Shown here: positions 5,686 to 60,508 of the stretch, one piece after another
How the letters are laid out: each line of letters starts with the position of its first letter
How positions within the stretch are numbered: position 1 is the stretch's first letter
Source: an uncultured Gammaproteobacteria bacterium
GTDB lineage: Bacteria; Patescibacteriota; Patescibacteriia; SG8-24
Assembly: GCA_964486995.1 (NCBI GenBank)
Contig: CAZAOV010000007.1
Location: 699-64,698 of the forward strand
DNA: 64,000 nt
Direction of reading: 5' to 3'
Notes under the pieces: generated by a model
Told to the model about the DNA's origin: nothing
What the model saw: only the letters and a program-made list of their open reading frames with translations
Database searches by the model: none
Program-made: the position numbers and the translations under genes

Positions 5686-6501
5686 ATGTCAGCAAAAGGA
5701 CGTTTCACAACTTTCTTCCGCACGCTCGCCAAGAGCTGCTATGACATGGAATTCTATCGAGAAGTCCGAACCAGGCCGTGGTCTGATGCTTTCAAGTACG
5801 CCGCGGTCTTTTTCGTTCTGATTACGTTCGCCATCGTACTGTCGGCGGCACCGGGTTCGTTTATGTTTTTGTCCGACGCGAAGAGCGAAATCCGAGATAA
5901 TATGCCAGACGGCACAGCGTTCGAGATAAAAAATAACATCTTTTCGACCACTCTGGAGCCAGCCACTGAGTTTGGTGGCGATGAATTTATTTTGATTATC
6001 GACGATACAATTTCCGGAAAGGATTTTCCGAAAGCGTTTGAGGACCGTATCGGTATTTTTATCGGACGCGACGCGGTATTTACTCAAGAGCCCGATAATA
6101 CGCGCGAAATCATGACATTTGAGGATGCGCCTGAGTTCGAGTTGACCAAACAGCAGATGTTGCAGTGGCTCAGTCGGTATGGCGCGCCAGTAATTGTGTT
6201 GATGCTGTGGCTAGTATGGCTATTCAGTTATTTTTTCTCGTTGCTGAGTGCATTGGTATCCATATTATTTATGTCGGTGATTTCATTGCTGGCTGGTCGG
6301 GCCTGGAAAGTTAACCTGAACTATAAACAGTGGCTGGCGGTAGGGTTTCATGCGATTACGTTGCCAACCATTTTGGATTTTCTGTTCACTTCATTTGGGT
6401 TGGATGTGCCGTTCCTGATGCCGGTGGTATTCTTTATGTTCATTTTTGCGGTGCTGTCGGATGAGCGGGCGCGACCGGTCAAACCAGAACCCGCCAAGTA
6501 A
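5686..6501 (+). CDS. Hypothetical polytopic membrane protein (DUF1189-like architecture)
   Basis: 271 aa, 4-5 predicted TM helices. Start uncertain because there is no SD (alternative ATG ~5746). Confidence 0.45.
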   Translation: MSAKGRFTTFFRTLAKSCYDMEFYREVRTRPWSDAFKYAAVFFVLITFAIVLSAAPGSFMFLSDAKSEIRDNMPDGTAFEIKNNIFSTTLEPATEFGGDEFILIIDDTISGKDFPKAFEDRIGIFIGRDAVFTQEPDNTREIMTFEDAPEFELTKQQMLQWLSRYGAPVIVLMLWLVWLFSYFFSLLSALVSILFMSVISLLAGRAWKVNLNYKQWLAVGFHAITLPTILDFLFTSFGLDVPFLMPVVFFMFIFAVLSDERARPVKPEPAK

Positions 6502-6510
6502 AGGAGGTGC

Positions 6511-6600
6511 CATCACGAAAAACCGCCAGACTTGTTTTAAGGGAGCAGCCTCGCTGTTGTCTAAAACAAGTCTGGCGGTTTTTGCGCAAGCTCGTGATGG
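6511..6600. repeat. Long hairpin, also a bidirectional terminator; copy 1 of hairpin family 1 (core CAGACTTGTTTTAAGG)
   Basis: AAAAACCGCCAGACTTGTTTTAAGG...CTAAAACAAGTCTGGCGGTTTTTG with outer arms CCATCACGA/TCGTGATGG. The same core recurs at 33197..33262 and partly at ~35780. Confidence 0.6.
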
Positions 6601-6678: not shown

Positions 6679-6960
6679 TCAGACAGCCGAAGCGAACGGC
6701 CAGCGTATGCGCTTGCATCGACGGCGTTCTAGTGCCGCCTTCGCCCGGGTCAGCTGATCGGCGTTCGGACAGATGACGTGCACCTGCACCGGTTTTGGCG
6801 CGTCGCTGGCTCTGCTCGCACGGACGCTGATTTTTATGCCCCGCGGCATCGTCAGATCGACGTTGTCCTCGTCGGGATGACCGAACATTGCGGCGAGAGA
6901 GCGGATTCGCCCTGTCGCCTCCTCGCGGCTTTCACAAAGAACGTACAATTCGTATGCCAT
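6679..6960 (-). CDS. Hypothetical small protein (93 aa)
   Basis: ATG start (MAYELYV...) preceded by a strong SD AAAGGAGGAGAG. No recognisable domain. Confidence 0.45.
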   Translation of the reverse strand: MAYELYVLCESREEATGRIRSLAAMFGHPDEDNVDLTMPRGIKISVRASRASDAPKPVQVHVICPNADQLTRAKAALERRRCKRIRWPFASAV

Positions 6961-9597: not shown

Positions 9598-10296
9598 ATG
9601 GACAACATAAAAGATTTTTCGCCACTCGAGGAACGAGTCGGCATCAAGTTTGATAATCGCGAAGTTCTAACTCAAGCGTTTGTTCACCGTTCGTACCTGA
9701 ATGAGCATCCGGGATTTGAAATTGGGCATAACGAGCGTCTGGAGTTTCTGGGTGATGCAGTGTTAGAGCTCGCGGTTACGGAATATCTCTACGAAAAATA
9801 TCCTAATCCCGAAGGCGAGCTCACCAATTGGAGAGCCGCTTTAGTTAACGCCAAGTCGTTGGCTAAGGTGGCCGCCGAAGTGGGGCTTGAAGATTATTTG
9901 TATCTGTCGCACGGCGAAGCCAGAGACTCGGGCAGTAAAGCGCGCAACTATATTTTAGCTAACGCCATGGAAGCGTTTATTGGTGCCATATATATAGATA
10001 AAGGAATGGAGGTGGCCGCCGAATTCATAAATAAATACATCATCTCGATGCTGGCAGAGATTCTGGAGAAGAAGCTATACATCGATCCCAAGAGTCGATT
10101 CCAGGAGAGTGCGCAAGAGTTGGTTGGCGTTACTCCGAGTTATCGGGTAATCAAGGAAATTGGACCGGATCACGCCAAGGAATTTACGGTTGGAGTTTAC
10201 TTGAACGACGAGCTGGTGGCCGAGGGACTGGGCACTTCTAAGCAAGAGGCGCAGATCGCTGCCGCCGAAAATGCACTCAACGCTAAAAAATGGTAG
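9598..10296 (+). CDS. rnc: Ribonuclease III
   Basis: RNase III signature ERLEFLGDAVLELAVTEYLY plus a C-terminal dsRBD. Confidence 0.9.
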   Translation: MDNIKDFSPLEERVGIKFDNREVLTQAFVHRSYLNEHPGFEIGHNERLEFLGDAVLELAVTEYLYEKYPNPEGELTNWRAALVNAKSLAKVAAEVGLEDYLYLSHGEARDSGSKARNYILANAMEAFIGAIYIDKGMEVAAEFINKYIISMLAEILEKKLYIDPKSRFQESAQELVGVTPSYRVIKEIGPDHAKEFTVGVYLNDELVAEGLGTSKQEAQIAAAENALNAKKW

Positions 10297-11405
10297 AATG
10301 GGGACGTATGGAAACTCCCTTCAAGCCAAAGGCGCGTGAAGTCATAGATCGGCTGTTCGGAATCGCCGTTGATCAAGGCGCCTCTGACCTTCATCTGGTG
10401 GTTAACAGGCCGCCGATTTTGCGTATAGGTGGACAGCTCACGCCAGTTAATGGCGCAGCCGTATTGAATGCAGAGAACGTTAAGCAGTTATGTTTTTCAA
10501 TTTTGACGGATGTTGAGCGCGAACGTTTTATTACCGAAAAAGAATTAGATGTCGCGCATCAAATTCCGTCCGGCAAGCGCTTCCGAATTAATTTGCATTG
10601 GGAAAGGGAGCATGTTGCAATGGCGGCTCGAACTATTCCGTCAGACATTCCGTCCATGAAAGATTTGGATCTGCCGCCGGTGGCGCACCAAATGGTTAAT
10701 TATCCGCATGGCTTGGTGCTGGTAACCGGACCGACCGGCGCCGGTAAGTCCACGACATTGGCGTCCATGATCGACAGCATCATAGATACTAAACCGGTTA
10801 ATGTGATTACCCTAGAAGATCCGATAGAGTTTTTGTTCGAATCTAAGACCGCAGTGGTTCGTCAGCGTCAGTTTGGTCAGGATTTTATAAGTTTTGAGGA
10901 AGGCCTGAAGCATATTTTACGCCAGGATCCGGATGTGGTGATGGTTGGTGAAATGCGTGACATGTCAACGATTTCCACCACGCTTACTATTGCCGAAACC
11001 GGTCACCTGGTATTCGCCACGTTGCACACCTACAGTGCGGCACAGACTATCGATCGTATTATCGACGCCTTTCCGGCGCATCAGCAGAATCAGATCAGAA
11101 CCCAGTTAGCGTTAACATTACGGGCGATTATCTCACAGCAGATGTTGCCTCAGACGGGCGGTGGTCGCGTAGCCTCGCGCGAGATTCTGGTGAATAACTA
11201 TGCCATTGCAAATCTGATACGTGACGGTAAGGTACAGCAGATTAATAACGTACTGCAGACATCCGTCGCCGATGGCATGACCACTCTCAGGCAGGATCTG
11301 AAACGTTTGGTTGAAATGAATCTGATTTCCGAGAAGACTGCTAGTGAGCATATTATCGGTGAAGCGAAATTGAATGAGGATGAAGAAGACGGTAAGAAAA
11401 AGTAG
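10290..11405 (+). CDS. pilT: Type IV pilus retraction ATPase PilT
   Basis: N-terminal ASDLHL...PPILRIGGQL, Walker A GPTGAGKSTT, Asp/His boxes; ~370 aa is the typical PilT size. Confidence 0.9.
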   Translation: MVEWGRMETPFKPKAREVIDRLFGIAVDQGASDLHLVVNRPPILRIGGQLTPVNGAAVLNAENVKQLCFSILTDVERERFITEKELDVAHQIPSGKRFRINLHWEREHVAMAARTIPSDIPSMKDLDLPPVAHQMVNYPHGLVLVTGPTGAGKSTTLASMIDSIIDTKPVNVITLEDPIEFLFESKTAVVRQRQFGQDFISFEEGLKHILRQDPDVVMVGEMRDMSTISTTLTIAETGHLVFATLHTYSAAQTIDRIIDAFPAHQQNQIRTQLALTLRAIISQQMLPQTGGGRVASREILVNNYAIANLIRDGKVQQINNVLQTSVADGMTTLRQDLKRLVEMNLISEKTASEHIIGEAKLNEDEEDGKKK

Positions 11406-11614
11406 ATATTTAGGTAATTGACAAATAGCCTTAAATGGGCTATTTTTGGTTAGGTGTTAGCGCTTCCGATATGGGGCAAGCTGCACCGCGTCGCAAGAAA
11501 TCATTTGCTCACCGTACTTATCGGTACGGCTCGCTGCATGATTCCTTGCGCCACGGCACATCTTACCCCATCTCGAAACCGCTTCACGTACTCGGCAAGA
11601 GGTTTACATATTAA

Positions 11615-11688
11615 GCGGGCGTAGTTCAACGGATAGAACGGCGGTTACGGAACCGTTAACGGGGGTTCGATTCCGTCTCGGGCGCTTC
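11615..11688 (+). pseudogene. Degenerate tRNA-Arg copy (6-nt anticodon loop, unpaired 3' acceptor strand)
   Basis: Identical to the tRNA-Arg at 11837 except loop TACGGA (6 nt) and 3' end CCGTCTCGGGCG, which cannot pair with the 5' GCGGGCG. Confidence 0.5.
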
Positions 11689-11836
11689 CGATATGGGGCA
11701 AGCTGCACCGCGTCGCAAGAAATCATTTGCTCACCGTACTTATCGGTACGGCTCGCTGCATGATTCCTTGCGCCACGGCACATCTTACCCCATCTCGAAA
11801 CCGCTTCACGTACTCGGCAAGAGGTTTACATATTAA

Positions 11837-11911
11837 GCGGGCGTAGTTCAACGGATAGAACGGCGGTCTTCGGAACCGTTAATGGGGGTTCGATTCCCTC
11901 CGCCCGCACCA
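11837..11911 (+). tRNA. tRNA-Arg (anticodon TCG) with encoded CCA
   Basis: Manual cloverleaf: acceptor GCGGGCG/CGCCCGC, D-arm GTTC-AACGGATA-GAAC, anticodon stem GCGGT/ACCGT with loop CTTCGGA, T-arm GGGGG-TTCGATT-CCCTC, discriminator A, CCA; followed by terminator AAAAAACCAACCATTCGGTTGGTTTTTT. Confidence 0.85.
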
Positions 11912-12216
11912 TGAAAAAACCAACCATTCGGTTGGTTTTTTCATGCGCTGCCAGCATGCTTGAGCAAGAAGGAGGCTCTTTTATGAAGGTACGACCATAA
12001 ATCACTTCTACGAAAAGCTGTTTTTGCTCCGCGACCTGATGAATACGCAGACAGCGAAGGATGTTGCCAAGCAACGCCATGAATACACGGATTATTTCGT
12101 CAGCCAGTTTATGATTGAATCGTATGGCATGGAATAGGGCCAACCGCGACCGTACAGGTCGTATTTTTTATCCCAAACCTCTTTACAAGATTCAAAATAT
12201 ATGCTATAAATTGTTC

Positions 12217-12291
12217 GGGTCGGTAGCTCAACGGTAGAGCAAATGGCTCTTAACCATTAGGTTCAGGGTTCGAGTCCCTGTCGACCCACCA
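12217..12291 (+). tRNA. tRNA-Lys (anticodon CTT) with encoded CCA
   Basis: Acceptor GGGTCGG/TCGACCC, D-arm GCTC-AACGGTA-GAGC, anticodon stem AATGG/CCATT with loop CTCTTAA, T-arm CAGGG-TTCGAGT-CCCTG, CCA; followed by terminator GCCCCAGCCGAATAGGCTGGGGC-TTT. Confidence 0.85.
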
Positions 12292-12428
12292 GATATGGTG
12301 GCCCCAGCCGAATAGGCTGGGGCTTTCCGCTATTTAAGGGTCAACAGGGATGAGAAGGGCGGCGAGAGAATGCGTGCTGGTGAGCATTTGGTGCGTAGCT
12401 GCCCCAGTACCCGAGTCGGAGCGAGGGG

Positions 12429-12446
12429 GAGTCCCTGTCGACCCAC
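12429..12446 (+). repeat. 18 bp direct repeat of the tRNA-Lys 3' end (GAGTCCCTGTCGACCCAC), att-like, followed by a terminator hairpin
   Basis: Exact copy of tRNA-Lys positions 12272..12289, located ~140 bp downstream and followed by CAGCCCTACAGGCTG-T6. Confidence 0.55.
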
Positions 12447-12882
12447 AATATGCGAAAAACAGCCCTACAGGCTGTTTTTTCTTGTTTTCCAGAACGGGCG
12501 TCGCCTGTTTGATAGGCGAAATGCGCCACACTGGAGCGGTCTATCTCCCCACCGAACTCAACCAATATACCTTACTGTATGATCGAAATGCGCTGGCTGC
12601 TTGGCACATTTCATTCCGGCAGACGACCGCTTGACCTTGCAGATAGCAATTGTCAGGCGTGATTTGCATTATCAACGGAAAAAAAATGCCTTCGCGACGG
12701 AATTTATTGACGTCGAATATTTTATAAGCCTATAAATTAGGTCAATAATGACTTTATTTCGCAAGCGAAATCGCTAATATGATATAGAAAAGCGTTTCAA
12801 GAATGTTTTCACACTTAATTTAAGCTAAAAATCATGGTATAATATATATGTAATACATATCCCGATTAACAGGAGGGGGGAT

Positions 12883-15384
12883 ATGAGAATTTTCATCCAA
12901 TTTAGCTTCTTATTTGCCGAAATATTGCTCGCGGTCGTTGAGCTTGTCGTAGGTGCGTTGATTTTGCGCGAATTTTTGCGCAGGAGAAATCAACCGCACC
13001 TTTTTTATATGGCTATCAGTCTCATATTAATGGGGCTGGGGAATGTTAGCGGATTTACGGGCGACTTCTTATATTCATACGGCGCGGAGAATTATGCTCT
13101 TATTTTTACCGCAATCTTTTCTAATATAATTTTGTTGGGTTCGTTCTTTTTTGCGTGTGGCATCGTAAATCTCTATGCCACCAGAAAGAAGTTGTGGTAT
13201 GCGCTGACGGCAATACTCGCCGTGGCGTTTTTACTGTTTGGCAGAGTGGGGGTAGGGGAGGCTTTTGGCCAGATTATTCCGGCAGAATCCGTGAGTCAGT
13301 TCATGTCCGCCTATGGCTACTGGATTTTGGTGCATTTTGTTGCTTCGATGGTGATTTTTAAGGCATATGCAAAGAGTCGCCATAATAAACAACCGTGCGG
13401 GGAAGCTGATCGCATGTTGTTCATAGGAAGCGGCATGTCTATGTTTTCTGCAATTATCGCGATAGGTTTTCTATCTGTGCAGGCAACTCAATTTACTGCC
13501 CTGGTGTATTTAGTTTTAATAATCGGTTCGGCGTACAAATATCTCGGTGCAGTAGCAATTAAACATCCAGATAAGCAGATTCAGACAAAGCCTGGTCAAG
13601 CAGTAAGCGGATTCATGACGGCGAAGGTGCTAATAGCCTGCGGTCTATTCTTTGTTATTTTTTCCTTTGCCTTGGTGGCTACCGTAACGCAGTACTTCGT
13701 TCGAGGGTCAATTGATAAGCAACACAAATTTATTAAGCACACACTACAGCATGCGGCCGCCGAACAAATAAGGCAACAGCAGACTCTGCGCACAGTATCT
13801 GAGATGCTCGCATCTCACCATGGGAGCCTACAAGCGCTAAACGGAGATGGGTCTGCTTTGATCGAGCTAATCAGTTTTGTTCGTGAGGATAAAAATGTCG
13901 ATATTGATTTGGTAGACGAGAATGGGAGTGTAATCGCAAGCTCATACAGCAGAGATATTGGCGAGAATTTTTACGCTCGTGATATCGCAGTGGTTGCGAG
14001 TGCCCTTGAAGGAAAAACTAGCGTCAGCATCGATATGTTGCGGGGGCCAAATATGTGGTCAAATATCTCCGCCAGCCCCATTTTTGATGATTCAAGTCAG
14101 GTTAGGGGGGCGCTGGTCATATCTCAGCAACTAATCGCAAGAAATTTTACTCAATGCTTAAGTGAATTCGGGGCGGAAATTAGTGGGTGCGGGTTAATCT
14201 CGTCGCGGGACGAGCAGATTTATTCGTCAGGCCAATCGGTGGATGCATTAGCCATTAATCGATTCAGAAAATTAATTCAGATTGGCGGCAGTTTTGGAGA
14301 AGCTGACGACGATGAGCTTGGAAAATACTTTGTTAGTTCTTACGGCGATGATTTGGGGGAGGACGAGTTCTATTATGCGTTTACAGCAGATGAAGATCGA
14401 GATGCGGTCTTGTTGCGGATTATGTCAACTGTTGTATTGATTACGTTTCTATTTTTTGCGGCGTTTTCGTTCTTGCTGATTTTCGGCACAAGCCTGTTCC
14501 TCAAGCCGATAATGATATTGCGGCAGGCGGCTGTGCGGCTGTCTCGGGGAGAATTCGACCAAGTTCTAGAAAGATCTTCTGCGGATGAGATTGGTCAGTT
14601 GACGCAGGCCTTTAACGACATGACTGCGACCATACGGAAGCAAACTCGAAGCCTAAACGAAAAAATTCGCGAGCAACGGGATGCCTTGTCCCATACGGCG
14701 CATGAGATTCGAATACCGCTGAACATATTTCGTTGGTCATTAGAGATGCTTCGCTTCGGTGAGGTTGGGCCACTCAACAATGAGCAGATGGAGTTGGTGG
14801 AACAGATGAGCCAGACCAATAATCGAATCAGGAAGCTAGTCAACGAGCTGCTGGAAGTTTCGCGTCTCGAGCAGGGTGGGGTGAGTTTAGAATTGGCCGA
14901 TGTGCAGATAGAAAATCTAATCGATGAAACGGCGGGCAGTTTCTCGGTTCTTTTCCGCCAGAAAAAAATAGATTTTTATTGGCACCGACCGGATAATCAG
15001 CTTCCGCCGGTAAGGATTGACCGCGAGCGCATTATTCAGGTTTTGAATAATCTATTTAGTAACGCTGCCAAATTTACCAATGAAGAGGGGCATGTAGAAA
15101 TTTCCGTCAAGGAACAGCCCGTGTCTGGTCCAAGTGGTCAGAAAGGCAGGTTCATTCGGGTAACCGTCAAGGACAACGGTCAGGGAATTCCGAAGAACGA
15201 GCAAAAAAATATCTTCAGCAAATTTTATCGAGCCGCCAACGTCGTCAAAGCGGAGATACAGGGTACCGGGTTGGGTCTTTATCTATCAAAGAAATATGTT
15301 GAGATGCATGGCGGGGAAATATGGTTTGAGTCCAAAGAGAGTGAGGGGACGTCATTCCATATAACTCTTCCTGTGTCAGATTAA
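12883..15384 (+). CDS. Sensor histidine kinase: N-terminal ~7TM domain, extracytoplasmic sensor region, HAMP, HisKA, HATPase
   Basis: SD AGGAGGGGGG. Multiple TM helices in the first 270 aa, HAMP (LRQAAVRLSRGEFDQ), H-box HTAHEIRIPLN, G-boxes DNGQGIP / GTGLGLYLSKKYVEMHGGEIW. Confidence 0.9.
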   Translation: MRIFIQFSFLFAEILLAVVELVVGALILREFLRRRNQPHLFYMAISLILMGLGNVSGFTGDFLYSYGAENYALIFTAIFSNIILLGSFFFACGIVNLYATRKKLWYALTAILAVAFLLFGRVGVGEAFGQIIPAESVSQFMSAYGYWILVHFVASMVIFKAYAKSRHNKQPCGEADRMLFIGSGMSMFSAIIAIGFLSVQATQFTALVYLVLIIGSAYKYLGAVAIKHPDKQIQTKPGQAVSGFMTAKVLIACGLFFVIFSFALVATVTQYFVRGSIDKQHKFIKHTLQHAAAEQIRQQQTLRTVSEMLASHHGSLQALNGDGSALIELISFVREDKNVDIDLVDENGSVIASSYSRDIGENFYARDIAVVASALEGKTSVSIDMLRGPNMWSNISASPIFDDSSQVRGALVISQQLIARNFTQCLSEFGAEISGCGLISSRDEQIYSSGQSVDALAINRFRKLIQIGGSFGEADDDELGKYFVSSYGDDLGEDEFYYAFTADEDRDAVLLRIMSTVVLITFLFFAAFSFLLIFGTSLFLKPIMILRQAAVRLSRGEFDQVLERSSADEIGQLTQAFNDMTATIRKQTRSLNEKIREQRDALSHTAHEIRIPLNIFRWSLEMLRFGEVGPLNNEQMELVEQMSQTNNRIRKLVNELLEVSRLEQGGVSLELADVQIENLIDETAGSFSVLFRQKKIDFYWHRPDNQLPPVRIDRERIIQVLNNLFSNAAKFTNEEGHVEISVKEQPVSGPSGQKGRFIRVTVKDNGQGIPKNEQKNIFSKFYRAANVVKAEIQGTGLGLYLSKKYVEMHGGEIWFESKESEGTSFHITLPVSD

Positions 15385-19771: not shown

Positions 19772-22732
19772 ATGTTTGTTCACAGAAATAAAATTTCTGC
19801 ACGTTTCGCTCGTTCCGGCATTTCGGTAATCGAGGTGCTTTTGGCGATAGCGATTTTTGGGGTGTTGGCCGCAAGCCTGATGATTTTGGTATGGGAGCCT
19901 TTGGTGTCTTCGAGCAGTGCGGCTCAGCGCGTGCAGGCCGTATTGTTGGCCGAAGAGGGGTTAGACGCCGCACGCTCGATTCGTAATGCGGACTGGTTGG
20001 CGCTCATTGACGGCGATCACGGAATAGATATTACCGGTGGGACTTGGGTCTTTTCTGGTACCAGCGACACGGACGGAACTTACATTCGGGTGGTCACCGT
20101 TGAGCCGGTTAGCCGAGACGTCTCTGGAGACATAACCGACACGGGCGGCACGCTGGATGCGAGAACAAAAAAAGTGACTTCGACGGTCAGCTGGGATTCG
20201 CCGTTCGGTGGCGATAAGTCGTTGTCATTCTCTACTTTTTTCACTAACTGGAACGTCATTGATTGGACGCAGGAAACTGACACGGACTTTGCCGGCGGCA
20301 TCAATAACGGCACTATCGTTACCGGCTTCGGAGACGCTGCCTATATCGAACTAGGTGCCGGCGGAGGTTCTGGTACATGGGACGTTTGGACCAGCTCATC
20401 CGTCACCCACACCACAGATGGAGATTTTTCGGCCGGAACACCGACCGACGTTACCGTGACCGGTGACGGAATTGAATTGAGTTCCGGCGGAATCGGTTCA
20501 TGGTCGGATTACGGTCTCGGTCCGGTAAGCGGGTCGTTGTACGGCATCGACATGGTTAGTTCATCAGACGGTTGGGTGTGCGGAGCGGGAGGGGCAATGA
20601 TTTCTTGGGACGGCAGCAGTTGGTCTGGATCAGAAAGCGTGGCCGGAACTAACACATATGCCGTTGATATGGTGTCTTCGACCAATGGCCATGCCGCTGG
20701 CGAGTGGAGCCTGCTTTATTCTTACAACGGGTCTTCTTGGTCATACGAGGGTTTTGATGTCCTGCAGAATATTACGGCTATCGGCATGGTCGATGGCAGT
20801 GACGGCTGGGCGGGCAGCAGTGGCGGTCGCGTCTTGCGGTGGGACGGGGCAGATTGGAATTTCTTCACCGATATTGGCGCAGAAGAAGTCGGGGACATTT
20901 ATATGCTTAGCACCAGCGACGGTTGGTTGGTTGCGCAGAACGGGCGAATTGAACGGTGGGACGGCTCCTCTTGGTCCGCATTTACTTCACCTACCTCGTC
21001 CTATCTGCGGGCAATCGACATGATTGATGCCAATGACGGCTGGGTGGTGGGTGATTCAGGCACTATTATTCGTTGGAATGGTTCCAGCTGGTCATCAGTT
21101 TCGTCTCCGACTTCTGATGACCTTTATGGCATATCGGTCGTAGCGTCAGATGACGTGTGGGCAGTGGGCGAAAGCGGCCGCATAATCCACTGGGACGGCT
21201 CTAGTTGGTCGAGTGTTTCTTCACCGACCAGCGAAAATCTTTACGACATTGCCATGGTTTCAAATGCAGACGGCTGGGCCGTTGGAGCCAACGGGACCAT
21301 TTTACGATTCGAACTTTCGTACGCTTCACCGGGCATACTAGAATCATCCGTCATCAATAGCGGTAAAACCGGAACCAGCTGGAGCCAGGTTTCCTGGACC
21401 GAGTCTTTACCTGCCGGAACCGATGTTACGGTGGCGTTTCGTTCTGGTGATACGGCAACACCGGACGGTAGTTGGTCGTCTTGGGGTTCGGAGGTCACGA
21501 ATGAAACCGGCAGCGCCGTCACCTCGTCCAGCTCTCAATATCTGCAATACCGTGTCACCATGACCACCAGTTCAATCGACACTCCGCGACTGGAGGACAT
21601 TACGGTTACGTATGACGAAGTGACCAGTAGCGATTTGTACGGTGTTGGCGGCAGCGCGGTGGATGACGTGTGGACAGTGGGTGAGTCCGGAACCTTATTG
21701 AACTATGACGGTTCGTCCTGGTCCAGCTTCAGTTCGCCGACCGGAAACGACATAAATGCCGTGGACGTACTGGCGTTCAATGACGCTTGGGCGGCGGCGG
21801 ACAGTGAGCAGTTCTTGAATTGGGACGGTTCCGCCTGGACCATAGTCAGCGATATCGGCAGCGGAACACTGAACGATATTGACTTGATTACGTCTTCGTC
21901 CGGTTGGGCAGTCGGTTCGGGCGAGGAATTCTTTGAATATGATGGCTCGTCATGGTCCGAGCTGTTCGATTTGGGCGAAGATACGCCCCAAGCCGTGTTT
22001 ATGCTTTCCGCCGTCGAGGGCTGGGCAGCCGGATCAAGCGAAAAATTTTATCGGTATGATGGTTTGTCATGGGCCGATTTTTCTGATTTGGGCGGCGAAA
22101 CCATTTACGACATTTACATGATTAGTTCGTCCGAGGGCTGGGCAGTCGGTTCGGGCGGCAAGTTTTACCGCTGGAACGGAACCGCCTGGTTCGAGTATGT
22201 GGACGTCGGCGGGGCTACGCTATACGGAGTGATAATGATTTCTGCGGTCGAGGGCTGGGCAGTCGGTTCGGGCGGCGCCCTGTACGAATGGGACGGCAAC
22301 TCATGGTCGTCTGTCGTTTCCGGAGTGACTGAAGATCTATATGACGTGTCCATTGTTTCGACGTCGCCGACGATTGCCTGGGCGGTGGGTGCGAACGGAA
22401 CTCTATTGAGTTTAACTGCCGGAGGTTCAGGAACCAGCGGCACTTACGAATCCAGTATTCTGGATACGGACAGCACCGATTCAATTTGGGAAACCATGTA
22501 TTTCGATGTCGTGCTGCCCAACGATTCCACCGCTACTGTTGCCTTGCGTTCCGGCGATACGCCAACACCGGACGGTAGCTGGGCGTCATGGAGTTCAGAG
22601 ATTTCAGTCACCTCTGGCACAGCGGTTCCGGTTTCCGGCGCTCGGTACCTGCAGTACCGCGTTACTCTAGAGAAAAATACCAGCCCCGATTCCCCGGAAT
22701 TTCACGGCATCACCATTACCTATACGCAATGA
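19772..22732 (+). CDS. Giant pilin-like protein (986 aa): prepilin N-terminus, ~12 beta-propeller-like WDGSSW repeats, and a twice-repeated ~110 aa C-terminal module
   Basis: N-terminus RSG/ISVIEVLLAIAIFGVLAASLMIL. Repeated ...DGWAVG..G.I..WDGSSWS... units of ~50 aa. Duplicated module (L/F)RSGDT.TPDGSW.SW.....G......YLQYRV at aa ~520-640 and ~870-986. Overlaps the next gene (ATGA). Confidence 0.8.
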   Translation: MFVHRNKISARFARSGISVIEVLLAIAIFGVLAASLMILVWEPLVSSSSAAQRVQAVLLAEEGLDAARSIRNADWLALIDGDHGIDITGGTWVFSGTSDTDGTYIRVVTVEPVSRDVSGDITDTGGTLDARTKKVTSTVSWDSPFGGDKSLSFSTFFTNWNVIDWTQETDTDFAGGINNGTIVTGFGDAAYIELGAGGGSGTWDVWTSSSVTHTTDGDFSAGTPTDVTVTGDGIELSSGGIGSWSDYGLGPVSGSLYGIDMVSSSDGWVCGAGGAMISWDGSSWSGSESVAGTNTYAVDMVSSTNGHAAGEWSLLYSYNGSSWSYEGFDVLQNITAIGMVDGSDGWAGSSGGRVLRWDGADWNFFTDIGAEEVGDIYMLSTSDGWLVAQNGRIERWDGSSWSAFTSPTSSYLRAIDMIDANDGWVVGDSGTIIRWNGSSWSSVSSPTSDDLYGISVVASDDVWAVGESGRIIHWDGSSWSSVSSPTSENLYDIAMVSNADGWAVGANGTILRFELSYASPGILESSVINSGKTGTSWSQVSWTESLPAGTDVTVAFRSGDTATPDGSWSSWGSEVTNETGSAVTSSSSQYLQYRVTMTTSSIDTPRLEDITVTYDEVTSSDLYGVGGSAVDDVWTVGESGTLLNYDGSSWSSFSSPTGNDINAVDVLAFNDAWAAADSEQFLNWDGSAWTIVSDIGSGTLNDIDLITSSSGWAVGSGEEFFEYDGSSWSELFDLGEDTPQAVFMLSAVEGWAAGSSEKFYRYDGLSWADFSDLGGETIYDIYMISSSEGWAVGSGGKFYRWNGTAWFEYVDVGGATLYGVIMISAVEGWAVGSGGALYEWDGNSWSSVVSGVTEDLYDVSIVSTSPTIAWAVGANGTLLSLTAGGSGTSGTYESSILDTDSTDSIWETMYFDVVLPNDSTATVALRSGDTPTPDGSWASWSSEISVTSGTAVPVSGARYLQYRVTLEKNTSPDSPEFHGITITYTQ

Positions 22733-25700: not shown

Positions 25701-28395
25701 TGGCGATGATGATTACGTTTATACGGGGCAGTTTACGATCAGCAATTATGGTATCCACGGATTTATTTTCCGTTATCAGGATGACAGTAATTTTTGGCGT
25801 CTAGTGTTTGAGTTTGGTCAGGTTCTGATTCGCGGTCAGGTGGGTGGGTCCTGGACAAATGCGGCCGGGCAGTCGGTAATCAATTGGTCTCCGACCGTCG
25901 GCACGACGTATAACATCAAGGTCAAAGCTGAAGGCAGTCAACTGGACGGAAAGTGGTGGGAAGACGGGACCGCCGAACCGGGTTCGTGGATGATTTCTGC
26001 CAATGACAGTCAGATATTGACTGGCTATGCGGGCGTGAGCAATCGTGACGGCACGCAGTTCGATAGTCTGTCCGTCACTACCTGCCTGACCGATCCGGTG
26101 ACTGGGTCGGTCACCGTAATTGACCCGAACGGCAATGATTCACTTATTGCTGGTTCGAACTATGAAATCCTGTGGAGCTCGTCGGACACTTCTGGCAATG
26201 TCGATATTGAATATTCGACCGACAATTTCGTTGCCGACATTAATTCGATTGCCAACAGCACGGCAGATGACGGAAGCTACTTTTGGACCGTTCCAAGCCT
26301 GGACAGTTCAACGGTGCGCGTGCGCATCAGCGACTCGGCCGATGCTGGCGTGACCGACACAAGCGACGCGGACTTCGAGATTTCCATGCCGCCGAGCGTC
26401 ACCGTAACCGACCCGAACGGCGGCGAGTCGCTCACTTCCGGTGACAGTTTTAATATCACCTGGATATCCATTAATTCCTCCGGATTCGTAGATATCGAGT
26501 ATTCAACCGACAATTTTGTTACCGATATAAATACGATAGTTGCCGGAACAGCCGATGACGGAATCCATGCCTGGAACGTGCCTGCTCTGGACAGTTCCAC
26601 CGTGCGCGTGCGCGTAACCGATGCGTTCTACGCCGGAATTGCAGATACGAGCGACGCGGACTTCAGCATCGCCACGCCGAGCACTGTCACGGTGACCGAC
26701 CCGAACGGCGGCGAGTCGCTCACTTCCGGTGACAGCTTTAATACCACCTGGACCTCCAACAACACCTCGGGCACGGTTGATATCGAATACTCCACCGACA
26801 ACTTTGTGTCCGATATCAATTCGATAGTTGTCGGAACCCTCGATGACGGTCTTTATGGCTGGACCGTTCCGAGTTTGGACAGCTCGACCGTACGCGTACG
26901 CGTTACCGACTCGGCCGATCCCGGCGTGACCGACACCAGCGACGCGGACTTCAGCATCGCCACGCCGAGCACTGTCACCGTGACCGACCCGAACGGCGGC
27001 GAGTCGTTAAACTCACAAGATTCATTCGACGTTACCTGGACCTCCAACAACACCTCGGGCACGGTTGATATCGAATACTCCACCGACAACTTTGTGTCCG
27101 ATATCAATTCGATAGTTGTCGGAACCCTCGATGACGGTCTTTATGGCTGGACCGTTCCGAGTTTGGACAGCTCGACCGTACGCGTACGCGTTACCGACTC
27201 GGCCGATCCCGGCGTGACCGACACCAGCGACGCGGACTTCAGCATCTCTACACAACCTACGTTCCGGGTAACCGAATACTACGTCACCAACAGTCAATTC
27301 AATCAGCAATCATACACCCTAACGCTCGACCAGGACTTAGAATCAAATTATTTTGTTATCGTCCGCGGCAGTGACGGTGACGGCAGCGGCAATGGCCATC
27401 GTGGTCCGGACGAGAACTACGCGGCATTGGCGGCTGACCCGTTTGGTACCGGTGATTTGAGCGATTCCGGTGCGTCAAACCAGATTGATCTTACCAGGCG
27501 GGGTGACACAGATGGCTGGCAGGGGGTAGTCACCGTAGTTGAATGCTTGGGCGACTGCGACTCGTCTGGCTTCGAACTGATTGGAGTCGAAGAGGTTACA
27601 CATTCTGGCAGTAGTACCGGCGGACAAGATACGTCCTCAGTTTCCTGGACCGACATCAATCAAATCATGCTGGTCGGCGGATTTTATGGCGCTGGCTGCA
27701 ACACCGATGAAAGCGACCATGTAGATCATGTCAGTTGCTTCGCCAAGATTTGGCCGGGCGGAACCAATGAAATTAATTGGTCCAGAGATGTCGGCGGCAA
27801 TAGTTCCCTGAGCACGGCCACCAGCACGGTCATGGTCATGGAGTGGGGGAGCGAATGGAACGTCCAGCGAGTTGATGTTGTCGGCAATAACGGCGGCAAC
27901 GGCGCGGACAGCACCGGCGAATACGACACGGCCAGCATCTCACCGGTGGCTCGGGTCAACACCTGGGTTTGGGGAACCGGTCACGTGGACGATGACGGTA
28001 TCGGCGATTCGGCCGAGGGGTCATTGGTTACGCTGGGCAACGGCGTGAACCAAAACGCCACCGAGTCGCAAGTAGCCGTAGGCAGTGAATACGGTGACGA
28101 CAAGGACTATGTGGTATATGCGCTAACGCACCCAGGCCTAGCGGTAGATTATTTCTTCAAGACCGACGGTCAAAGAGGCGATTTAACCAATGACGCGTCG
28201 GTTGATTCGGCGCCGGCCGGCAGTCGTATGGCGTTGGCCTATAACGGCTGTAACGGCACGGGACATGCTTATCCGAGGCCGATATTCTCGGCGCGATATT
28301 TATCGGACACGTTTATCCGCATGGAGCGGCTTCGGTCCGGTCAGGCATTTCCAGCTTGGATTCAGGGCATCGACTTTAGCGAGATAAAACATTAG
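22729..28395 (+). CDS. Giant pilin-like protein (~1888 aa): prepilin N-terminus; domains A-B, then A', a LamG/ConA-like domain, 4 tandem ~96 aa Ig-like repeats, and B'
   Basis: Start MKRAKQNNNRG/IALLELIIYLGLLGFV (class III signal). ORF track begins further upstream at 22588 inside the previous gene. Internal duplication of a ~190 aa domain (YRFFANDDSTDVGAPLAAQD... x2) and a ~370 aa domain (FRVTEYY...AWIQGIDFS x2). WRLVFEFGQVLIRG region consistent with a LamG-like fold. Confidence 0.8.
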   Translation: MKRAKQNNNRGIALLELIIYLGLLGFVLSAMVMFSVEFAATHAKSAALAESARNTKFAVTRIAYEVRRAESIDYDNSTLDTSPSVLTLETSNPSTNPTVISVVENQLMMSQGGGADIPLTPSQVEVEDFTIINVADTTRSRSIRVALTLGIVESGSLEEFSGVTSYMTTVRVWKDDGYNTEGTPPTPTPTYGQSAYRFFANDDSTDVGAPLAAQDSAAALSSDGNPFRLRMMVDVDTATVATSAASFKLQFAEKSGACDTYFVGESYEDVTAISDIAYNDNSPSDGVALNANANDPVRAGRTSVAQTYEEANNLTNSNQILAGQTGLWDFALIDNDGTDEKEYCFRLVHSSDSQLNDYSVVPEISTAAGSTTDVFRVTEYYITAGEFSGDTYDLTLDQALASNYFTIIRGSDGSGTGGGNRGPDENYVSLTADPFGTGELVPSSGSDVLQLTRHNSVDGWQGVVTVAECLGNCSTSGFELLDVRRVVHSGTSTGGTETAGASWSDIDQVMLLGGYNGAGCDSIETDSGSHHSCHVRLWPSGSNQIFWTRNSLGGLMTATSTVQVLEWGSDWTVQRRTVTGSSGGDGADQLTEYDRTAISSVNRDATWVWGTGHTSESGTGDSAEASLITLGDGVNLNSSESWVSVGQEVDWANKEFEVYALTHPSLMVDYRFKPDGNESDLTYDQAVNSATAGLRMSVAYNGSDGSGSQYPRPIFSTRYASDTSVRMERRRVGAEFPAWIQGIDFSNIMAGGGPPPSATLTQSAYRIFDNDDSTDVGAPLAAQDTAATLTANESEFRLRYLLGIDTFGLSMSGESLKLQYATKSGTCDTAFADESYADVTGATAIAFADNSPSDGVALTENANDPVSGGRTTIAQTYEENNNHTNTTAIANGEAGLWDFALVDNDGLNAADYCLRVVRSDGSLLDTYSVIPEVSTVSGCGVIFSDDFEDGDASDWVHTWDSGVDWNVVDVGGNNVYENTSSTYSQTQAPSFGDDDYVYTGQFTISNYGIHGFIFRYQDDSNFWRLVFEFGQVLIRGQVGGSWTNAAGQSVINWSPTVGTTYNIKVKAEGSQLDGKWWEDGTAEPGSWMISANDSQILTGYAGVSNRDGTQFDSLSVTTCLTDPVTGSVTVIDPNGNDSLIAGSNYEILWSSSDTSGNVDIEYSTDNFVADINSIANSTADDGSYFWTVPSLDSSTVRVRISDSADAGVTDTSDADFEISMPPSVTVTDPNGGESLTSGDSFNITWISINSSGFVDIEYSTDNFVTDINTIVAGTADDGIHAWNVPALDSSTVRVRVTDAFYAGIADTSDADFSIATPSTVTVTDPNGGESLTSGDSFNTTWTSNNTSGTVDIEYSTDNFVSDINSIVVGTLDDGLYGWTVPSLDSSTVRVRVTDSADPGVTDTSDADFSIATPSTVTVTDPNGGESLNSQDSFDVTWTSNNTSGTVDIEYSTDNFVSDINSIVVGTLDDGLYGWTVPSLDSSTVRVRVTDSADPGVTDTSDADFSISTQPTFRVTEYYVTNSQFNQQSYTLTLDQDLESNYFVIVRGSDGDGSGNGHRGPDENYAALAADPFGTGDLSDSGASNQIDLTRRGDTDGWQGVVTVVECLGDCDSSGFELIGVEEVTHSGSSTGGQDTSSVSWTDINQIMLVGGFYGAGCNTDESDHVDHVSCFAKIWPGGTNEINWSRDVGGNSSLSTATSTVMVMEWGSEWNVQRVDVVGNNGGNGADSTGEYDTASISPVARVNTWVWGTGHVDDDGIGDSAEGSLVTLGNGVNQNATESQVAVGSEYGDDKDYVVYALTHPGLAVDYFFKTDGQRGDLTNDASVDSAPAGSRMALAYNGCNGTGHAYPRPIFSARYLSDTFIRMERLRSGQAFPAWIQGIDFSEIKH
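26746..27240 (+). repeat. Near-identical ~288 bp tandem repeat inside the giant pilin (Ig-like repeats 3 and 4), ~210 bp of perfect nucleotide identity
   Basis: acctggacctccaacaacacctcgggcacggttgatatcgaatactccaccgac...gacttcagcatc occurs twice, 288 bp apart. Repeats 1-2 (26390..26690) are more diverged. Confidence 0.8.
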
Positions 28396-31732: not shown

Positions 31733-31809
31733 AACATAGATTATTAACTATCCATTAAGCAATTAATCGGGCATATAATTGTCCTGATGCTATAAATTAA
31801 ACAGTAAAT

Positions 31810-32400
31810 ATGAAGCGCAATAACAAAGGTTTTACCCTAGTCGAGCTCCTAATCGTCATCGGCATCATCGGTTTTCTGGCCGCAGCCATCTTGGTGGCGG
31901 TCGACCCGGTCAAGCGTATCCAGGACTCACGCAACTCCCAGCGCTGGTCAGAGGTCAACTCAATCCTGAACGCGGTGCTGAAGAAGCAGGTTGATGATCG
32001 GGCTCTGTATAACGGCGACTCAGCGGCACCCATCATCACCAGTGCCGACTATGCTCAGGTCATTGTCGAGGATGCAACCGATATAGTTTGTAATGTCGAG
32101 AGTACTCGACCCGGTTGCGATACAGCTTTGGATGTAAGCGCGGCGGACGCCGACTGCGTGGCGCAGCTTTTCGAAAATACTTCTCCGGGCACAGAACATC
32201 TTAATCCGACCTACTTGGCTGAAATGCCAACCGATCCCGGTGATGCCACCTGTCTGGATAGCGGAGACTGCACAGCGTTTGGTGACATTGTCATTGGTGA
32301 TTCGAATAGCGGTTATTATATCAAGCGAAGCACCGGCAACCGAATCGAGATTGGCGCATGTCAGCCGGAGCAGGGCGCTACCATCAGCGTCAAGCGATAG
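31810..32400 (+). CDS. pilA: Type IV major pilin (PilA-like), copy 1
   Basis: MKRNNKG/FTLVELLIVIGIIGFLAAAILVAV class III signal; 196 aa with 4 Cys in the C-terminal D-region; followed by terminator ATCCCGCTCCGTCTGAGCGGGAT-T5. Confidence 0.85.
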   Translation: MKRNNKGFTLVELLIVIGIIGFLAAAILVAVDPVKRIQDSRNSQRWSEVNSILNAVLKKQVDDRALYNGDSAAPIITSADYAQVIVEDATDIVCNVESTRPGCDTALDVSAADADCVAQLFENTSPGTEHLNPTYLAEMPTDPGDATCLDSGDCTAFGDIVIGDSNSGYYIKRSTGNRIEIGACQPEQGATISVKR

Positions 32401-32453: not shown

Positions 32454-32531
32454 TTACTTATGGTGTCGGACTGAAATAGATGCTAAAATATGAATACACC
32501 ATAAAGAAATCTCTCTAAACAAGATTTAAAT

Positions 32532-33196: not shown

Positions 33197-33262
33197 AAAA
33201 ACTGTCAGACTTGTTTTAAGGCGGACGCGGAGCCGTCCCTTAAAACAAGTCTGACAGTTTTT
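33197..33262. repeat. Hairpin family 1, copy 2 (AAAACTGTCAGACTTGTTTTAAGGCGGAC ... GTCCCTTAAAACAAGTCTGACAGTTTTT)
   Basis: ~27 bp stem sharing the core CAGACTTGTTTTAAGG with the 6511..6600 hairpin. Confidence 0.6.
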
Positions 33263-60308: not shown

Positions 60309-60382
60309 TGGTCGGGCTGGAGAGAATCGAACTCTCGACTCACGCACCCCATGCGCGTGTATTACCATTATACTACAGCCCG
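60309..60382 (-). tRNA. tRNA-Pro (anticodon GGG) with encoded CCA
   Basis: Manual fold of the reverse complement: acceptor CGGGCTG/CAGCCCG, D-arm GTAT-AATGGTA-ATAC, anticodon stem CGCGC/GCGTG with loop ATGGGGT, T-arm GAGAG-TTCGATT-CTCTC, discriminator A, CCA. Confidence 0.8.
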
Positions 60383-60427
60383 GCTTAGCAGTGATTAAAC
60401 ACTTTCAGCCTAAATAAATCAAGGTGG

Positions 60428-60471: not shown

Positions 60472-60508
60472 CCGCCCTAGCTAGCGGCGGTTTTTGTTGA
60501 TTCATTCC

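Follow-up and report, generated by a model that had tools for sequence, protein, structure and literature searches.

A tRNA island between pilT and a histidine kinase gene

The stretch of DNA analysed here (the window, 64,000 nucleotides in all) comes from a Patescibacteria (CPR) genome, and the region of interest separates pilT (10290..11405, plus strand) from a histidine kinase gene (12883..15384, plus strand). The pilT gene (PF00437) served as the anchor for synteny and taxonomy; it is 91% identical to P0001 and 80% identical to a Patescibacteria MAG, with identities of 65-77% to Parcubacteria/Uhrbacteria MAGs. In relatives, an RNase III gene lies directly 5' of pilT. The kinase was recognized as an open reading frame whose orthologues in the related loci L121 and L122 have HAMP, HisKA and HATPase_c domains. 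Ten mid-size ORFs elsewhere in the window are housekeeping genes, with no recombinase among them.

Between these two anchors lie a tRNA-Arg gene, a tRNA-Lys gene and, separating the two, a small ORF (11964..12137, plus strand) whose translation (...TTINHFYEKLFLLRDLMNT...) identifies it as the frameshifted C-terminal remnant of an HD-domain hydrolase. A Pfam search of this remnant gave no match, and its identity came instead from an intact homologue in L007 (5429-6124; ...TTINHFHEKLLLLKDRMNT...) that occupies the same place between tRNA-Arg and tRNA-Lys. The surrounding order is unstable among relatives: tRNA-Lys is inverted in L122, relocated to a place behind the kinase gene in L121, and surrounded in L146 by inversions and a duplicated kinase gene, while pieces of a pseudo-tRNA-Arg are present in both L146 and L121. 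Together with the truncated hydrolase, these shifts bear out the suggestion, made in a preliminary description of this DNA, that the interval is a likely recombination hotspot. We regard it as an even call whether the interval as a whole is a rearrangement-prone tRNA island in which a tRNA-Arg duplication, a hydrolase tail and an insertion element or mobile RNA gene at tRNA-Lys lie side by side.

Duplication and palindrome in the tRNA-Arg leader

The functional tRNA-Arg(TCG) occupies 11837..11911 on the plus strand (ARAGORN; Rfam 68.9 bits) and would be transcribed from a conserved promoter just 3' of pilT. The promoter-like element, TTGACA-17 nt-TATTTT (11418..11446, plus strand; 10 of 12 consensus positions matched), has a small hairpin as its spacer, and TTGACR-N17-TATTTT is also found 3' of pilT in L001-L004 and L120-L122. 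With a promoter at this position, both copies of the palindrome described below, and the pseudo-tRNA as well, would fall within the 5' leader in the plus sense. The gene is followed by a terminator hairpin, GAAAAAACCAACC-ATTC-GGTTGGTTTTTTC (11913..11942, plus strand), which was read from the sequence and is conserved in position in L120-L122.

The leader and part of the tRNA are repeated head to tail. This tandem duplication had been noted before and is real, although its period is 222 bp and not the 225 bp first given (TRF: 2.0 copies, 98% matches over 11460-11897). Unit 1 (11460..11681, plus strand) consists of palindrome, spacer and pseudo-tRNA-Arg, and unit 2 (11682..11903, plus strand) was recovered by TRF, alignment and repeat search; each combines an imperfect palindrome of ~124 nt with the first ~60 nt of the tRNA. 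The segments 11460-11645 and 11682-11867 are 100% identical across 186 nt, and in the alignment all differences between the units lie from the anticodon loop onward. The sequence at the duplication junction has a homologue in the L121 leader, a match equalled by none of 500 shuffles.

The pseudo-tRNA-Arg (11615..11681, plus strand) is identical to the real gene over nucleotides 1-31 and keeps the T-arm. Its anticodon loop has 6 nt (TACGGA, 11646-11651) where the canonical loop has 7, and its 3' acceptor strand has been replaced by the leader sequence GTCTCGG (11675-11681); the 3' strand, TCGGGCG, lacks complementarity to GCGGGCG, and the canonical 7-bp acceptor stem is absent. The preliminary description had only the second copy folding properly, and only that copy is called by ARAGORN and Rfam: the first (11615-~11677) scores 22.3 bits against an Rfam gathering score of 29 and is passed over by ARAGORN. 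We treat it as a pseudo-copy, a dead fragment of the gene.

We suggest that the tRNA-Arg leader first acquired the palindrome and that head-to-tail duplication followed, in a 222-bp block comprising leader and roughly the initial 60 nt of the tRNA, probably by unequal recombination between the T-arm of the tRNA and a T-arm-like remnant in the leader. This account has to reconcile 186 identical nucleotides with three changes clustered within 16 nt, and so needs an additional assumption, either gene conversion or counter-selection of a tRNA that is only half functional. The copy number of the 222-bp unit may also be an assembly artefact. Partial tRNA genes left by mobile elements are a general phenomenon (van der Gulik et al. 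2023, PMC9897764), and both the Arg copy and the 18-nt tail of tRNA-Lys considered below resemble them as non-canonical fragments beside intact genes. The Arg fragment differs in being the 5' part of a gene, derived from a local 222-bp tandem duplication, rather than a 3' att remnant. Palindrome, duplication and pseudo-tRNA amount to ordinary genome wear, and are a useful caution for tRNA annotation.

The palindrome itself (copy 1, 11460..11583; copy 2, 11682..11805, identical to it) folds with a stem of ~50 bp. The self-complementarity attributed earlier to the ~155-bp leader, with its outer arms and CCGTAC/GTACGG inner hairpin, is present: for the 155 nt 5' of tRNA-Arg, the plus strand folds with -57.2 kcal/mol (z -5.2) and the minus strand with -84.2 kcal/mol (z -10.2), values that 0 of 200 shuffles matched on either strand. 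What fell away was the idea of a conserved structured leader, since the hairpin is missing from the orthologous tRNA-Arg leaders of L121, L122, L001 and L002 and an Rfam search was without match. In the closest relative, L120, a different palindrome occupies the same slot and recurs three times in 6.5 kb. We considered whether the two belong to one repeat family and rejected this, as they have only a 9-mer in common, which is not above the level of shuffles.

It is unlikely, in our judgement, that the hairpin has a function as a structured leader or as a small RNA, perhaps antisense, with a selected duplication, rather than a selfish palindrome. The very stable fold on both strands would suit such a function, as would the perfect identity of the two copies, and the RNase III gene near pilT in relatives suggests that a long leader duplex could be a substrate. 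As a minus-strand RNA the palindrome would contain seven G.U pairs, against one as a plus-strand RNA, but this difference is only weakly significant (about p 0.07), and no minus-strand promoter or terminator was predicted for the hairpin. The lack of a homologue in the leaders of relatives and in Rfam, and the unrelated dispersed palindrome in the same slot of L120, also speak against a functional leader. A selfish palindrome of the REP/REPIN/MITE kind agrees with an intergenic, leader-borne imperfect palindrome of ~120 nt that is absent at orthologous sites, with the inverted repeat that spans its whole length (stem ~50 bp, z -10.2), and with the clearly dispersed palindromic family in L120. 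It differs from such repeats in having no sequence similarity to the L120 family and neither a clear target-site duplication nor a known transposase, and in occurring within the 64 kb solely as two tandem copies, the only matches to a 23-mer from the palindrome arm (shuffles gave none). Two matches to a palindrome 20-mer in IMG/VR were both chance, inside a phage protein gene.

A folded element behind tRNA-Lys

tRNA-Lys(CTT) (12217..12291, plus strand; ARAGORN, Rfam) is preceded by a promoter-like TTTACA-17 nt-TATAAA (12182..12210, plus strand), likewise read from the sequence and conserved in L122, L146, L121 and L001. Nucleotides 12272-12289 of the gene (GAGTCCCTGTCGACCCAC; T-loop G57 to C74) recur exactly at 12429-12446, so that the two 18-bp repeats are 157 nt apart from start to start with 139 bp between them. 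The preliminary description had correctly reported this copy of the tRNA 3' end and the terminator behind it (12454..12480, plus strand), and had read them as the scar left by integration and excision of a tRNA-targeting island. The first half of that reading survives: the repeat is best taken as marking an insertion at the tRNA-Lys 3' end, and in L122 the site is empty. The second half does not, because the 157-bp insertion is still present and is itself the element, without coding capacity and with a core of ~83 nt that is conserved with covariation.

Within the inserted block, a terminator hairpin, CCCCAGCC-GAATA-GGCTGGGG-CTTTCC (12302..12329, plus strand), precedes a structured element of 109 nt (12338-12446). 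The 5' arm of the element, GGGTCAACAGGGA (12338..12350, plus strand), was defined by fold, covariation and duplex energies, and is the reverse complement (12 of 13 positions) of tRNA-Lys nt 60-72, the 3' strands of the T-stem and acceptor stem. The 3' arm (12429..12446, plus strand) is the exact direct copy of G57-C74, a geometry that is repeated at other loci of the family described below. In the window the two arms form a closing stem of 13 bp with one mismatch, and CCA is not encoded. The arms enclose the conserved core (12349..12432, plus strand; covariance model R1 and covariation), whose three plus-strand helices are P1 (12357-12363 with 12398-12404), P2 (12368-12373 with 12384-12389) and P3 (12410-12415 with 12422-12427), the last including a tandem G.A. 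The core end reads ...GCGAGGGG. Scanned with R1, the element scores 93.8 bits (E 5e-16) and is the sole significant match in the window; promoter prediction gave no convincing promoter of its own.

Three other readings of this segment were set aside. Two ORFs overlap the element (12350-12634 and 12370-12582), but a coding element was rejected on the grounds that member lengths vary, no frame is common to them and the helices covary. The likeness of the P2 stem to the anticodon stem of tRNA-Lys is not seen in other members and was judged a coincidence. The same verdict was reached for GGTGCGCA, which matches the XerC arm of E. coli dif; a dif-site reading was dropped because no partner resembling the XerD arm accompanies it.

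The element belongs to a family. A metagenome scan and the covariance model, which was built from 14 members, yielded 18 copies on 16 distinct contigs at 75-109 bits, with one more at 48 bits. The tRNA genes 5' of these copies are Lys-CTT, Lys-TTT, Ala, Asn, Ser, Gln and Arg, and the arms match the local tRNA at every locus where they were examined. The region 3' of tRNA-Lys is conserved in L004, L010 and L003. The family is characterised by a conserved three-helix core and by a closing stem whose two strands repeat the 3' part of the local tRNA (from T-loop G57 to the 3' end), one inverted and the other direct. Such a family of folded elements behind tRNA genes of the tiny-genome CPR bacteria is apparently undescribed: a literature search found nothing relevant, and Rfam 15, searched at gathering and permissive thresholds with the window and three related loci, returned tRNAs and hairpin-type false positives alone; no credible match appeared over 11300-12700 with the limit at E<=10, or in L004, L007 and L146 with the limit at E<=1.

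Covariation supports both parts of the fold. Of the core cells, 97.8% pair (shuffles: 90.3%); compensatory changes are seen at six pairs, an indel in P1 is paired, and G.U pairs are confined to the plus sense. In the closing stem (16 members), double changes are found at 11 of 13 pairs; none of 500 shuffles attains the score, and every slid control falls below it; cognate arm duplexes average -17.7 kcal/mol, compared with -11.5 for non-cognate ones. Pairing of the inner 7 bp of the stem holds in 69-100% of members, that of the outer positions in ~50%. Most members encode CCA 3' of the arm. At the 17 loci read, identity between 3' arm and tRNA starts at G57, except for two where it starts at C56; of the T-loop only G57-N60 is kept, the core replacing the rest, and no intact GTTCRA remains. 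In L004 and L136 the 3' arm deviates from the tRNA while the 5' arm complements the tRNA version, the pattern to be expected of a 3' arm that is the native end, displaced and now decaying. L003, L130 and L148 contain additional copies that are truncated or decayed. Core sequences cluster by tRNA type across genomes, and copies at the same tRNA are alike between genomes (for example L142/L149b and L141/L167). A terminator stands 3' of every copy, often different from the tRNA's own, and by eye many members have an AT-rich, -10-like box 5' of the 5' arm.

Among close relatives the element is patchy, being present in the window and L146 and absent from L121 and L122. The block is 87% identical between the window and L146, and pilT DNA 71.5%. 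Its internal terminator hairpin is kept in L146 and missing at the empty site of L122, where tRNA-Lys is followed directly by a homologue of the terminator that stands behind the element in the window. The score of this terminator match, 28, is reached by 0 of 1000 shuffles, although it rests on compositionally easy A-run/T-run hairpins. The tRNA-Lys site of L121 is also empty. The L122 site does not prove a recent gain, since a deletion between the 18-bp repeats would recreate an "empty" site. The preliminary description had allowed that relatives might show the same arrangement with no element ever present; the arrangement does recur in relatives, and the small conserved element is what is present there.

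Origin of the element

Our best reading is that the element is a small non-autonomous insertion element targeting tRNA genes or, equally, a mobile RNA gene. We infer that it enters tRNA genes at the T-loop, immediately 3' of the universal GTTC, and supplies a replacement for the tRNA 3' end, so that the displaced native end stays behind as the downstream arm. Behind tRNA-Lys it would have arrived as a 157-bp block carrying its own terminator, and its RNA would be made in the sense of the tRNA. Short copies of tRNA 3' ends are routinely interpreted as traces of genomic islands, whereas those in the CPR genomes studied here mark a compact, conserved, folded element. The element also offers a concrete marker for recombination at CPR tRNA genes.

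The conventional explanation, that the 18-bp repeat is an attL/attR-type scar of an integrase island or prophage at tRNA-Lys, since excised or decayed, seems to us very unlikely. A direct repeat from the T-loop to the tRNA 3' end is the known geometry of integrase sites in tRNA genes (PMC5704250), and the element shares with integrase-mediated tRNA integration at att sites of the T-loop class, and with CIMEs, which are att-flanked remnants lacking an integrase, the bounding repeat beside an intact tRNA, the empty sites in relatives, and tandem decayed units that resemble accretion at att sites. The differences lie in what the repeat encloses. The 139 bp between the repeats contain no ORF remnant, and across the family the inserts measure 140-190 bp, hold no gene or gene remnant, and have a conserved folded core. 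They carry an inverted copy of the tRNA segment, which has no place in a normal att site, and the arms change with the tRNA. The insert covaries as a folded molecule at 18 loci and behind seven tRNA species, which random decay of different islands would not produce. No parent element was found from which a CIME could have decayed, and the conserved covarying core argues for a constrained unit rather than random decay. No integrase lies nearby, and around 15 copies no common neighbouring protein (integrase, reverse transcriptase, HNH) emerged beyond local synteny. Nor did viral sequences supply an integrase-bearing parent. By BLAST the element had no match among GenBank phages. Of 37 matches to a core 16-mer in IMG/VR, all were chance except a weak one of 29 bits beside a tRNA in L110, and two further core patterns yielded no family member; these three pattern scans followed by the covariance model gave best scores of 29 and 23.6 bits, with exact patterns limiting the sensitivity.

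A more serious alternative, which we hold to be possible though doubtful, is vertical inheritance: the element would be a small RNA gene whose ends resemble those of a tRNA, and its arms would be kept matched by gene conversion and hairpin correction instead of transposition. The closing stem would imitate the stacked T-stem and acceptor stem, RNase P, RNase Z and the CCA-adding enzyme could mature or stabilise the RNA, and the conserved core would bind a conserved partner. Covariation of core and stem with plus-sense G.U pairs, the terminator 3' of each copy, the CCA that most members encode, the -10-like boxes and the clustering of cores by tRNA type all accord with an RNA gene. The likeness of same-tRNA copies fits long vertical inheritance as well as it fits insertion, and the insertion account has to do without a recombinase, reverse transcriptase or other common gene beside the copies. 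On the other side stand the patchy distribution, the truncated and decayed copies, the uncompensated 3'-arm mutations in L004 and L136, the outer half of the stem pairing in only about half of the members, and the destroyed T-loop. A jump between tRNA types would need simultaneous replacement of both arms. The missing clear promoter in the window weighs against both accounts. Comparison with tRNA-like mimics (the tmRNA domain, viral 3' structures, mascRNA-type signals) points both ways: the closing stem reproduces the stacked 3' strand of T- and acceptor stems and usually ends in a discriminator base and CCA, but a core of ~83 nt stands in for the T-loop, there is no equivalent of the D-arm or anticodon arm, the outer stem is often imperfect, and no match to the Rfam tRNA clan covers the element.

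For an insertion element, the main difficulty is that a cut-and-paste or integrase model leaves unexplained why the two arms fit every new tRNA. It is conceivable, though improbable, that the core itself drives a mobile element of a protein-free or RNA-guided kind, as a small ribozyme or a guide RNA that recognises the universal T-loop and T-stem. The tRNA-complementary 5' arm would then recognise tRNA genes or transcripts, and the element might insert itself, for instance by reverse splicing or by template switching with DNA copying, or might steer a host recombinase. Insertion of this kind would explain why both arms are rewritten at each new tRNA.

As a mobile element it would be a very small one that targets tRNA genes and copies its target in two orientations by an unexplained route. 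As an RNA gene it would be a new mimic of the tRNA tail, in bacteria about whose RNA biology almost nothing is known. In both cases it is a candidate new RNA family for which a covariance model is at hand.

Rolling-circle transposons of the IS91 family offer a further, tentative comparison. They have ends flanked by GTTC and CTTG and an HUH (Rep-like) transposase, and they give rise to one-ended products. The variable ends of the present element do not coincide with GTTC or CTTG. Its inner junction lies right 3' of the T-loop GTTC, and the variable outer end, with 1.1-1.55 tandem units, recalls the one-ended products of rolling-circle transposition.

A structured element behind tRNA-Lys

The preliminary description had reported an 18-nt copy of the tRNA-Lys 3' end with a terminator beyond it, and both were recovered: positions 12272-12289 recur exactly at 12429-12446, and the terminator occupies 12454-12480. 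BLAST comparison revealed that the ~155 nt 3' of tRNA-Lys, including this repeat, are conserved in three related contigs, L004 (79% over 236 nt), L010 and L003, whose PilT proteins are merely 65-71% identical to that of the window. These loci share a common plan. After the tRNA come a terminator and a short spacer, then a 5' arm in which the T-stem and the acceptor 3' strand of the tRNA appear as their reverse complement. Next is a GC-rich conserved core composed of GAGAAGGGCG(G)CGAGAG, a hairpin and CGGTGCGCAGC(C)GCCCC…CCCGAG(T)CGGAGCGAGGGG, and the plan closes with the tRNA segment between the T-loop and the 3' end, repeated in direct orientation. In the window, this element spans 12338-12446.

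Scanning metagenome contigs with a single exact pattern yielded 45 stretches, of which thirty are chance matches in coding DNA and the remainder full elements; the family found by way of this one pattern stands at 18 copies. A covariance model of the core, built from 14 members, gives a single significant hit in the window (12349-12432, 93.8 bits) and recovers the known locus copies together with a second copy in L149 and a decayed second copy in L130. Its E-values are rough, the model being short-calibrated, and bit scores of 75-109 lie far above background (11.6 bits for the runner-up in the window). An Arg-linked copy in L007 is matched at 48 bits, and a longer, more divergent Arg-type relative of equal plan is also present in L004 and L146. 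The genes upstream of the copies represent seven tRNA species, Lys(CTT), Lys(TTT), Ala(GGC), Asn(GTT), Ser(GCT), Gln(CTG) and Arg(TCG); two loci have only a degenerate upstream tRNA or none.

The core folds into three helices, with standard pairs in 97.8% of cells as against 90.3% in shuffles. Changes on both sides occur at six pairs, the covariation score is reached by 0/500 shuffles, and all slid controls collapse. P1 is invariant save for one G-C pair that members either have on both sides or lack on both, P2 changes freely in sequence while keeping its pairing, and P3 shows two compensatory changes and a tandem G.A, with an extra hairpin accepted in the loop of the L146 copy. The arms, aligned in register, form a closing stem with double changes at 11/13 pairs; 74% of cells pair versus 60% in shuffles, 0/500 of which reach the observed score or percentage, and slid controls are all lower. 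Pairing is almost constant in its inner ~7 bp (T-loop nt 59-60 and T-stem) and extends to the outer acceptor part in about half of the members. Mean arm duplex energy is -17.7 kcal/mol for cognate arms versus -11.5 with arms of other tRNA types. Since the G.U pairs are in the + sense, the folded strand has the polarity of the tRNA, and a coding reading is ruled out because member lengths differ.

Two details of the core can be set apart. The palindrome CACGTCGTTCG(A/C)GAACGACGTG occurs twice in L146, in the P3 loop of the Lys-type element (6840-6866, +) and in the Arg-type element (10255-10282, -). The motif GGTGCGCA (window 12391-12398), invariant in all members, is identical to the 8 nt with which the XerC arm of E. 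coli dif begins; with no XerD-arm-like sequence nearby, this is probably a coincidence.

Junctions, empty sites and origin of the element

The junction is constant across the 17 loci read: identity between 3' arm and tRNA starts at T-loop nucleotide G57 (C56 in two), directly past the universal GTTC. The outer end of the tRNA copy is variable, from nt 74 in the window to about 100 nt; it can extend over the terminator, the spacer and the 5' arm into a second core, of which 8-12 nt are then included, giving 1.1-1.55 tandem units. In L122, a contig with an 83% identical PilT, AAAAAAACAGCCAACCGCTGTTTTTTT lies directly 3' of tRNA-Lys and matches the post-element terminator of the window (score 28, reached in 0/1000 shuffles, between low-complexity hairpins); the window terminator immediately 3' of the tRNA has no match to the L122 post-tRNA sequence. 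Because the L122 tRNA-Lys thus adjoins a homologue of the post-element terminator, the window carries an extra 157-bp block with an 18-bp direct repeat, an occupied/empty pair whose empty-site definition rests on low-complexity terminator hairpins. The L121 site is likewise empty.

We regard it as a non-autonomous insertion element of small size or, with equal weight, as a mobile RNA gene; in either case it would enter tRNA genes at the T-loop and restore the tRNA 3' end. The family, its fold, the constant junction, the link to seven tRNA species and one occupied/empty pair are established; its mobility, its transcription and the choice of which repeat copy is native are what we infer. Divergence of the 3' arm from the tRNA is seen in L004 and L136; there the 5' arm still complements the tRNA version at 3/3 informative positions, as would be expected of a 3' arm that is a displaced native tRNA end in decay. 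Between the window and L146, the element block shares 87% identity and pilT DNA 71.5%, and the sequence past the 3' arm is unrelated. The main rival explanation, still a plausible one, is that of a vertically inherited small RNA mimicking the tRNA tail, kept in step with the neighbouring tRNA by gene conversion. The scar of an excised island, as proposed in the preliminary description, is the least supported reading, given the conserved covarying core, the lack of a recurrent protein family adjoining the copies (local synteny aside) and the finding of no family member in pattern scans of IMG/VR contigs or among GenBank phages. A weak 29-bit core-model match on L110 (7721-7811, -), an IMG/VR contig classed as viral, where a tRNA gene is followed 9 nt on by GAGAAGGGCGCGAGAG…, may point to a distant relative or be fortuitous.

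No Rfam family matches the element, and literature searches, raw motif strings included, found no description of it. The nearest known frame is tRNA 3'-end integration with direct repeats and att-flanked remnants, or CIMEs (PMC5704250), and partial tRNA genes left behind by mobile elements are well known (PMC9897764); unlike the element, which has all three, neither includes a target copy in inverted orientation, a covarying core this large or arms that vary with the target.

Elsewhere, tRNA genes are followed by (near-)perfect inverted copies of their own T-loop-to-acceptor segment, in L007 (7861-7936, -; 19 nt), L003 (9413-9446, +; 16 nt, just 13 nt past CCA), L004 (11248-11328) and L002 (~11400). 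In some of them, a GC-rich core is present in divergent form and the 3' arm is absent. The loci are matched as long hairpins by Rfam miRNA models, and we discounted these matches.

The tRNA-Arg duplication and its leader

The pilT gene (10290-11405) served as context and taxonomic anchor. Its product is 80% identical to that of one Patescibacteria MAG, 65-77% to those of Parcubacteria and Uhrbacteria MAGs, and 91%, 85% and 83% to proteins encoded on metagenome contigs L120, L121 and L122; ten further window ORFs are housekeeping genes, with no recombinase among them. Because pilT in L120-L122 is followed by tRNA-Arg(TCG) and then usually tRNA-Lys(CTT), this order is ancestral for the clade. 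Between the two tRNAs, the window retains part of an HD-domain phosphohydrolase gene (11964-12137, +), namely its C-terminal end with a frameshift, and a short MKVRP* start in another frame (11983-12000); the intact homologue lies between tRNA-Arg and tRNA-Lys in L007 (5429-6124).

The tandem duplication noted at tRNA-Arg stands, with a period of 222 rather than 225 bp: the single array reported by TRF covers 11460-11897, in two copies that match at 98%. Over their first 186 nt (11460-11645 and 11682-11867) the units are 100% identical, and they differ only from the anticodon loop onward. As described, only the second tRNA-Arg is sound (11837-11911, called by ARAGORN, 68.9 bits with Rfam, over threshold); the upstream copy scores 22.3 bits against a threshold of 29 and has a 6-nt anticodon loop and a non-complementary 3' acceptor strand. 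The repeat junction TCCGTCTCGG-GCGCTTCCGAT is homologous to a single contiguous stretch of the L121 leader (score reached in 0/500 shuffles), so that the "wrong acceptor strand" is old leader sequence. Because this stretch also resembles a T-arm (GCTTCAATCC against GGTTCGATTCC), we suggest that the unit arose by unequal recombination between the tRNA T-arm and a T-arm-like leader remnant. Against 186 nt of identity between units (copy number as assembled), three changes fall close together in the anticodon and variable loops.

Upstream of its functional tRNA-Arg, L146 has a separate pseudo-tRNA-Arg 5' half (nt 1-36; 10420-10515, -), and such fragments therefore recur at this locus. It is of the window's sequence type and is broken after the anticodon by two GC-rich mini-palindromes totalling 42 nt. 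The functional gene is of a different sequence type, which suggests gene replacement by incoming DNA.

A promoter-like TTGACA-17-TATTTT motif (11418-11446, +) precedes both units, and TTGACR-17 nt-TATTTT lies directly 3' of pilT in every relative read (L001-L004 and L120-L122). Given this conserved motif, the tRNA-Arg transcript probably has both hairpin copies and the pseudo-tRNA in its + sense 5' leader. The 17-nt spacer is a small conserved hairpin (ATAGCC…GGCTAT), a pilT terminator at first sight but within the promoter.

The ~155 nt preceding tRNA-Arg are strongly structured, as proposed, when judged against shuffles on both strands (+ strand -57.2 kcal/mol, z -5.2; - strand -84.2, z -10.2). 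Conservation of that structure in the leader was not borne out. The window palindrome (11460-11583 and 11682-11805) was not found in the 40-110-nt leaders of L001-L004, L121 and L122, and in L120, the closest relative, this slot is occupied by a distinct palindrome of ~105 nt that shows no significant similarity to that of the window. Since the arms of the L120 palindrome (GTAGCGGCAGGGCTTGCCCCTGC, conserved around variable centres) recur twice more within 6.5 kb (copies at 482-561, 1452-1529 and 6291-6393), it is a dispersed repeat in that genome, of REP/REPIN-like character. With six relatives free of the palindrome and L120 carrying a dissimilar dispersed one, we read the window hairpin as a lineage-specific insertion of a kind that the leader appears to tolerate. 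Its stem has 7 G.U pairs as minus-strand RNA versus one as plus-strand RNA, an excess that could stem from mutation bias or antisense RNA.

Other repeats in the window

A 25-bp perfect-stem hairpin (GGTGGTTTTTTGCCTGTCTATACTT / AAGTATAGACAGGCAAAAAACCGCC; 60423-60476) adjoins tRNA-Pro (60309-60382, -) and has no core-model match. Downstream of pilus genes are four tandem 288-nt repeats in a 1935-aa ORF (26110-27273) and 117-nt repeats in a 986-aa ORF (21668-22308), and two adjacent ~200-aa paralogous ORFs share a 99% identical 214-nt stretch (31805-32018 and 32527-32740). Two 66-nt bidirectional terminator-like palindromes (AAAAACCGCCAGACTTGTTTTAAGG…; 6518-6583 and 33197-33262), 76% identical and 26.7 kb apart, may represent a repeated terminator or a palindrome family.
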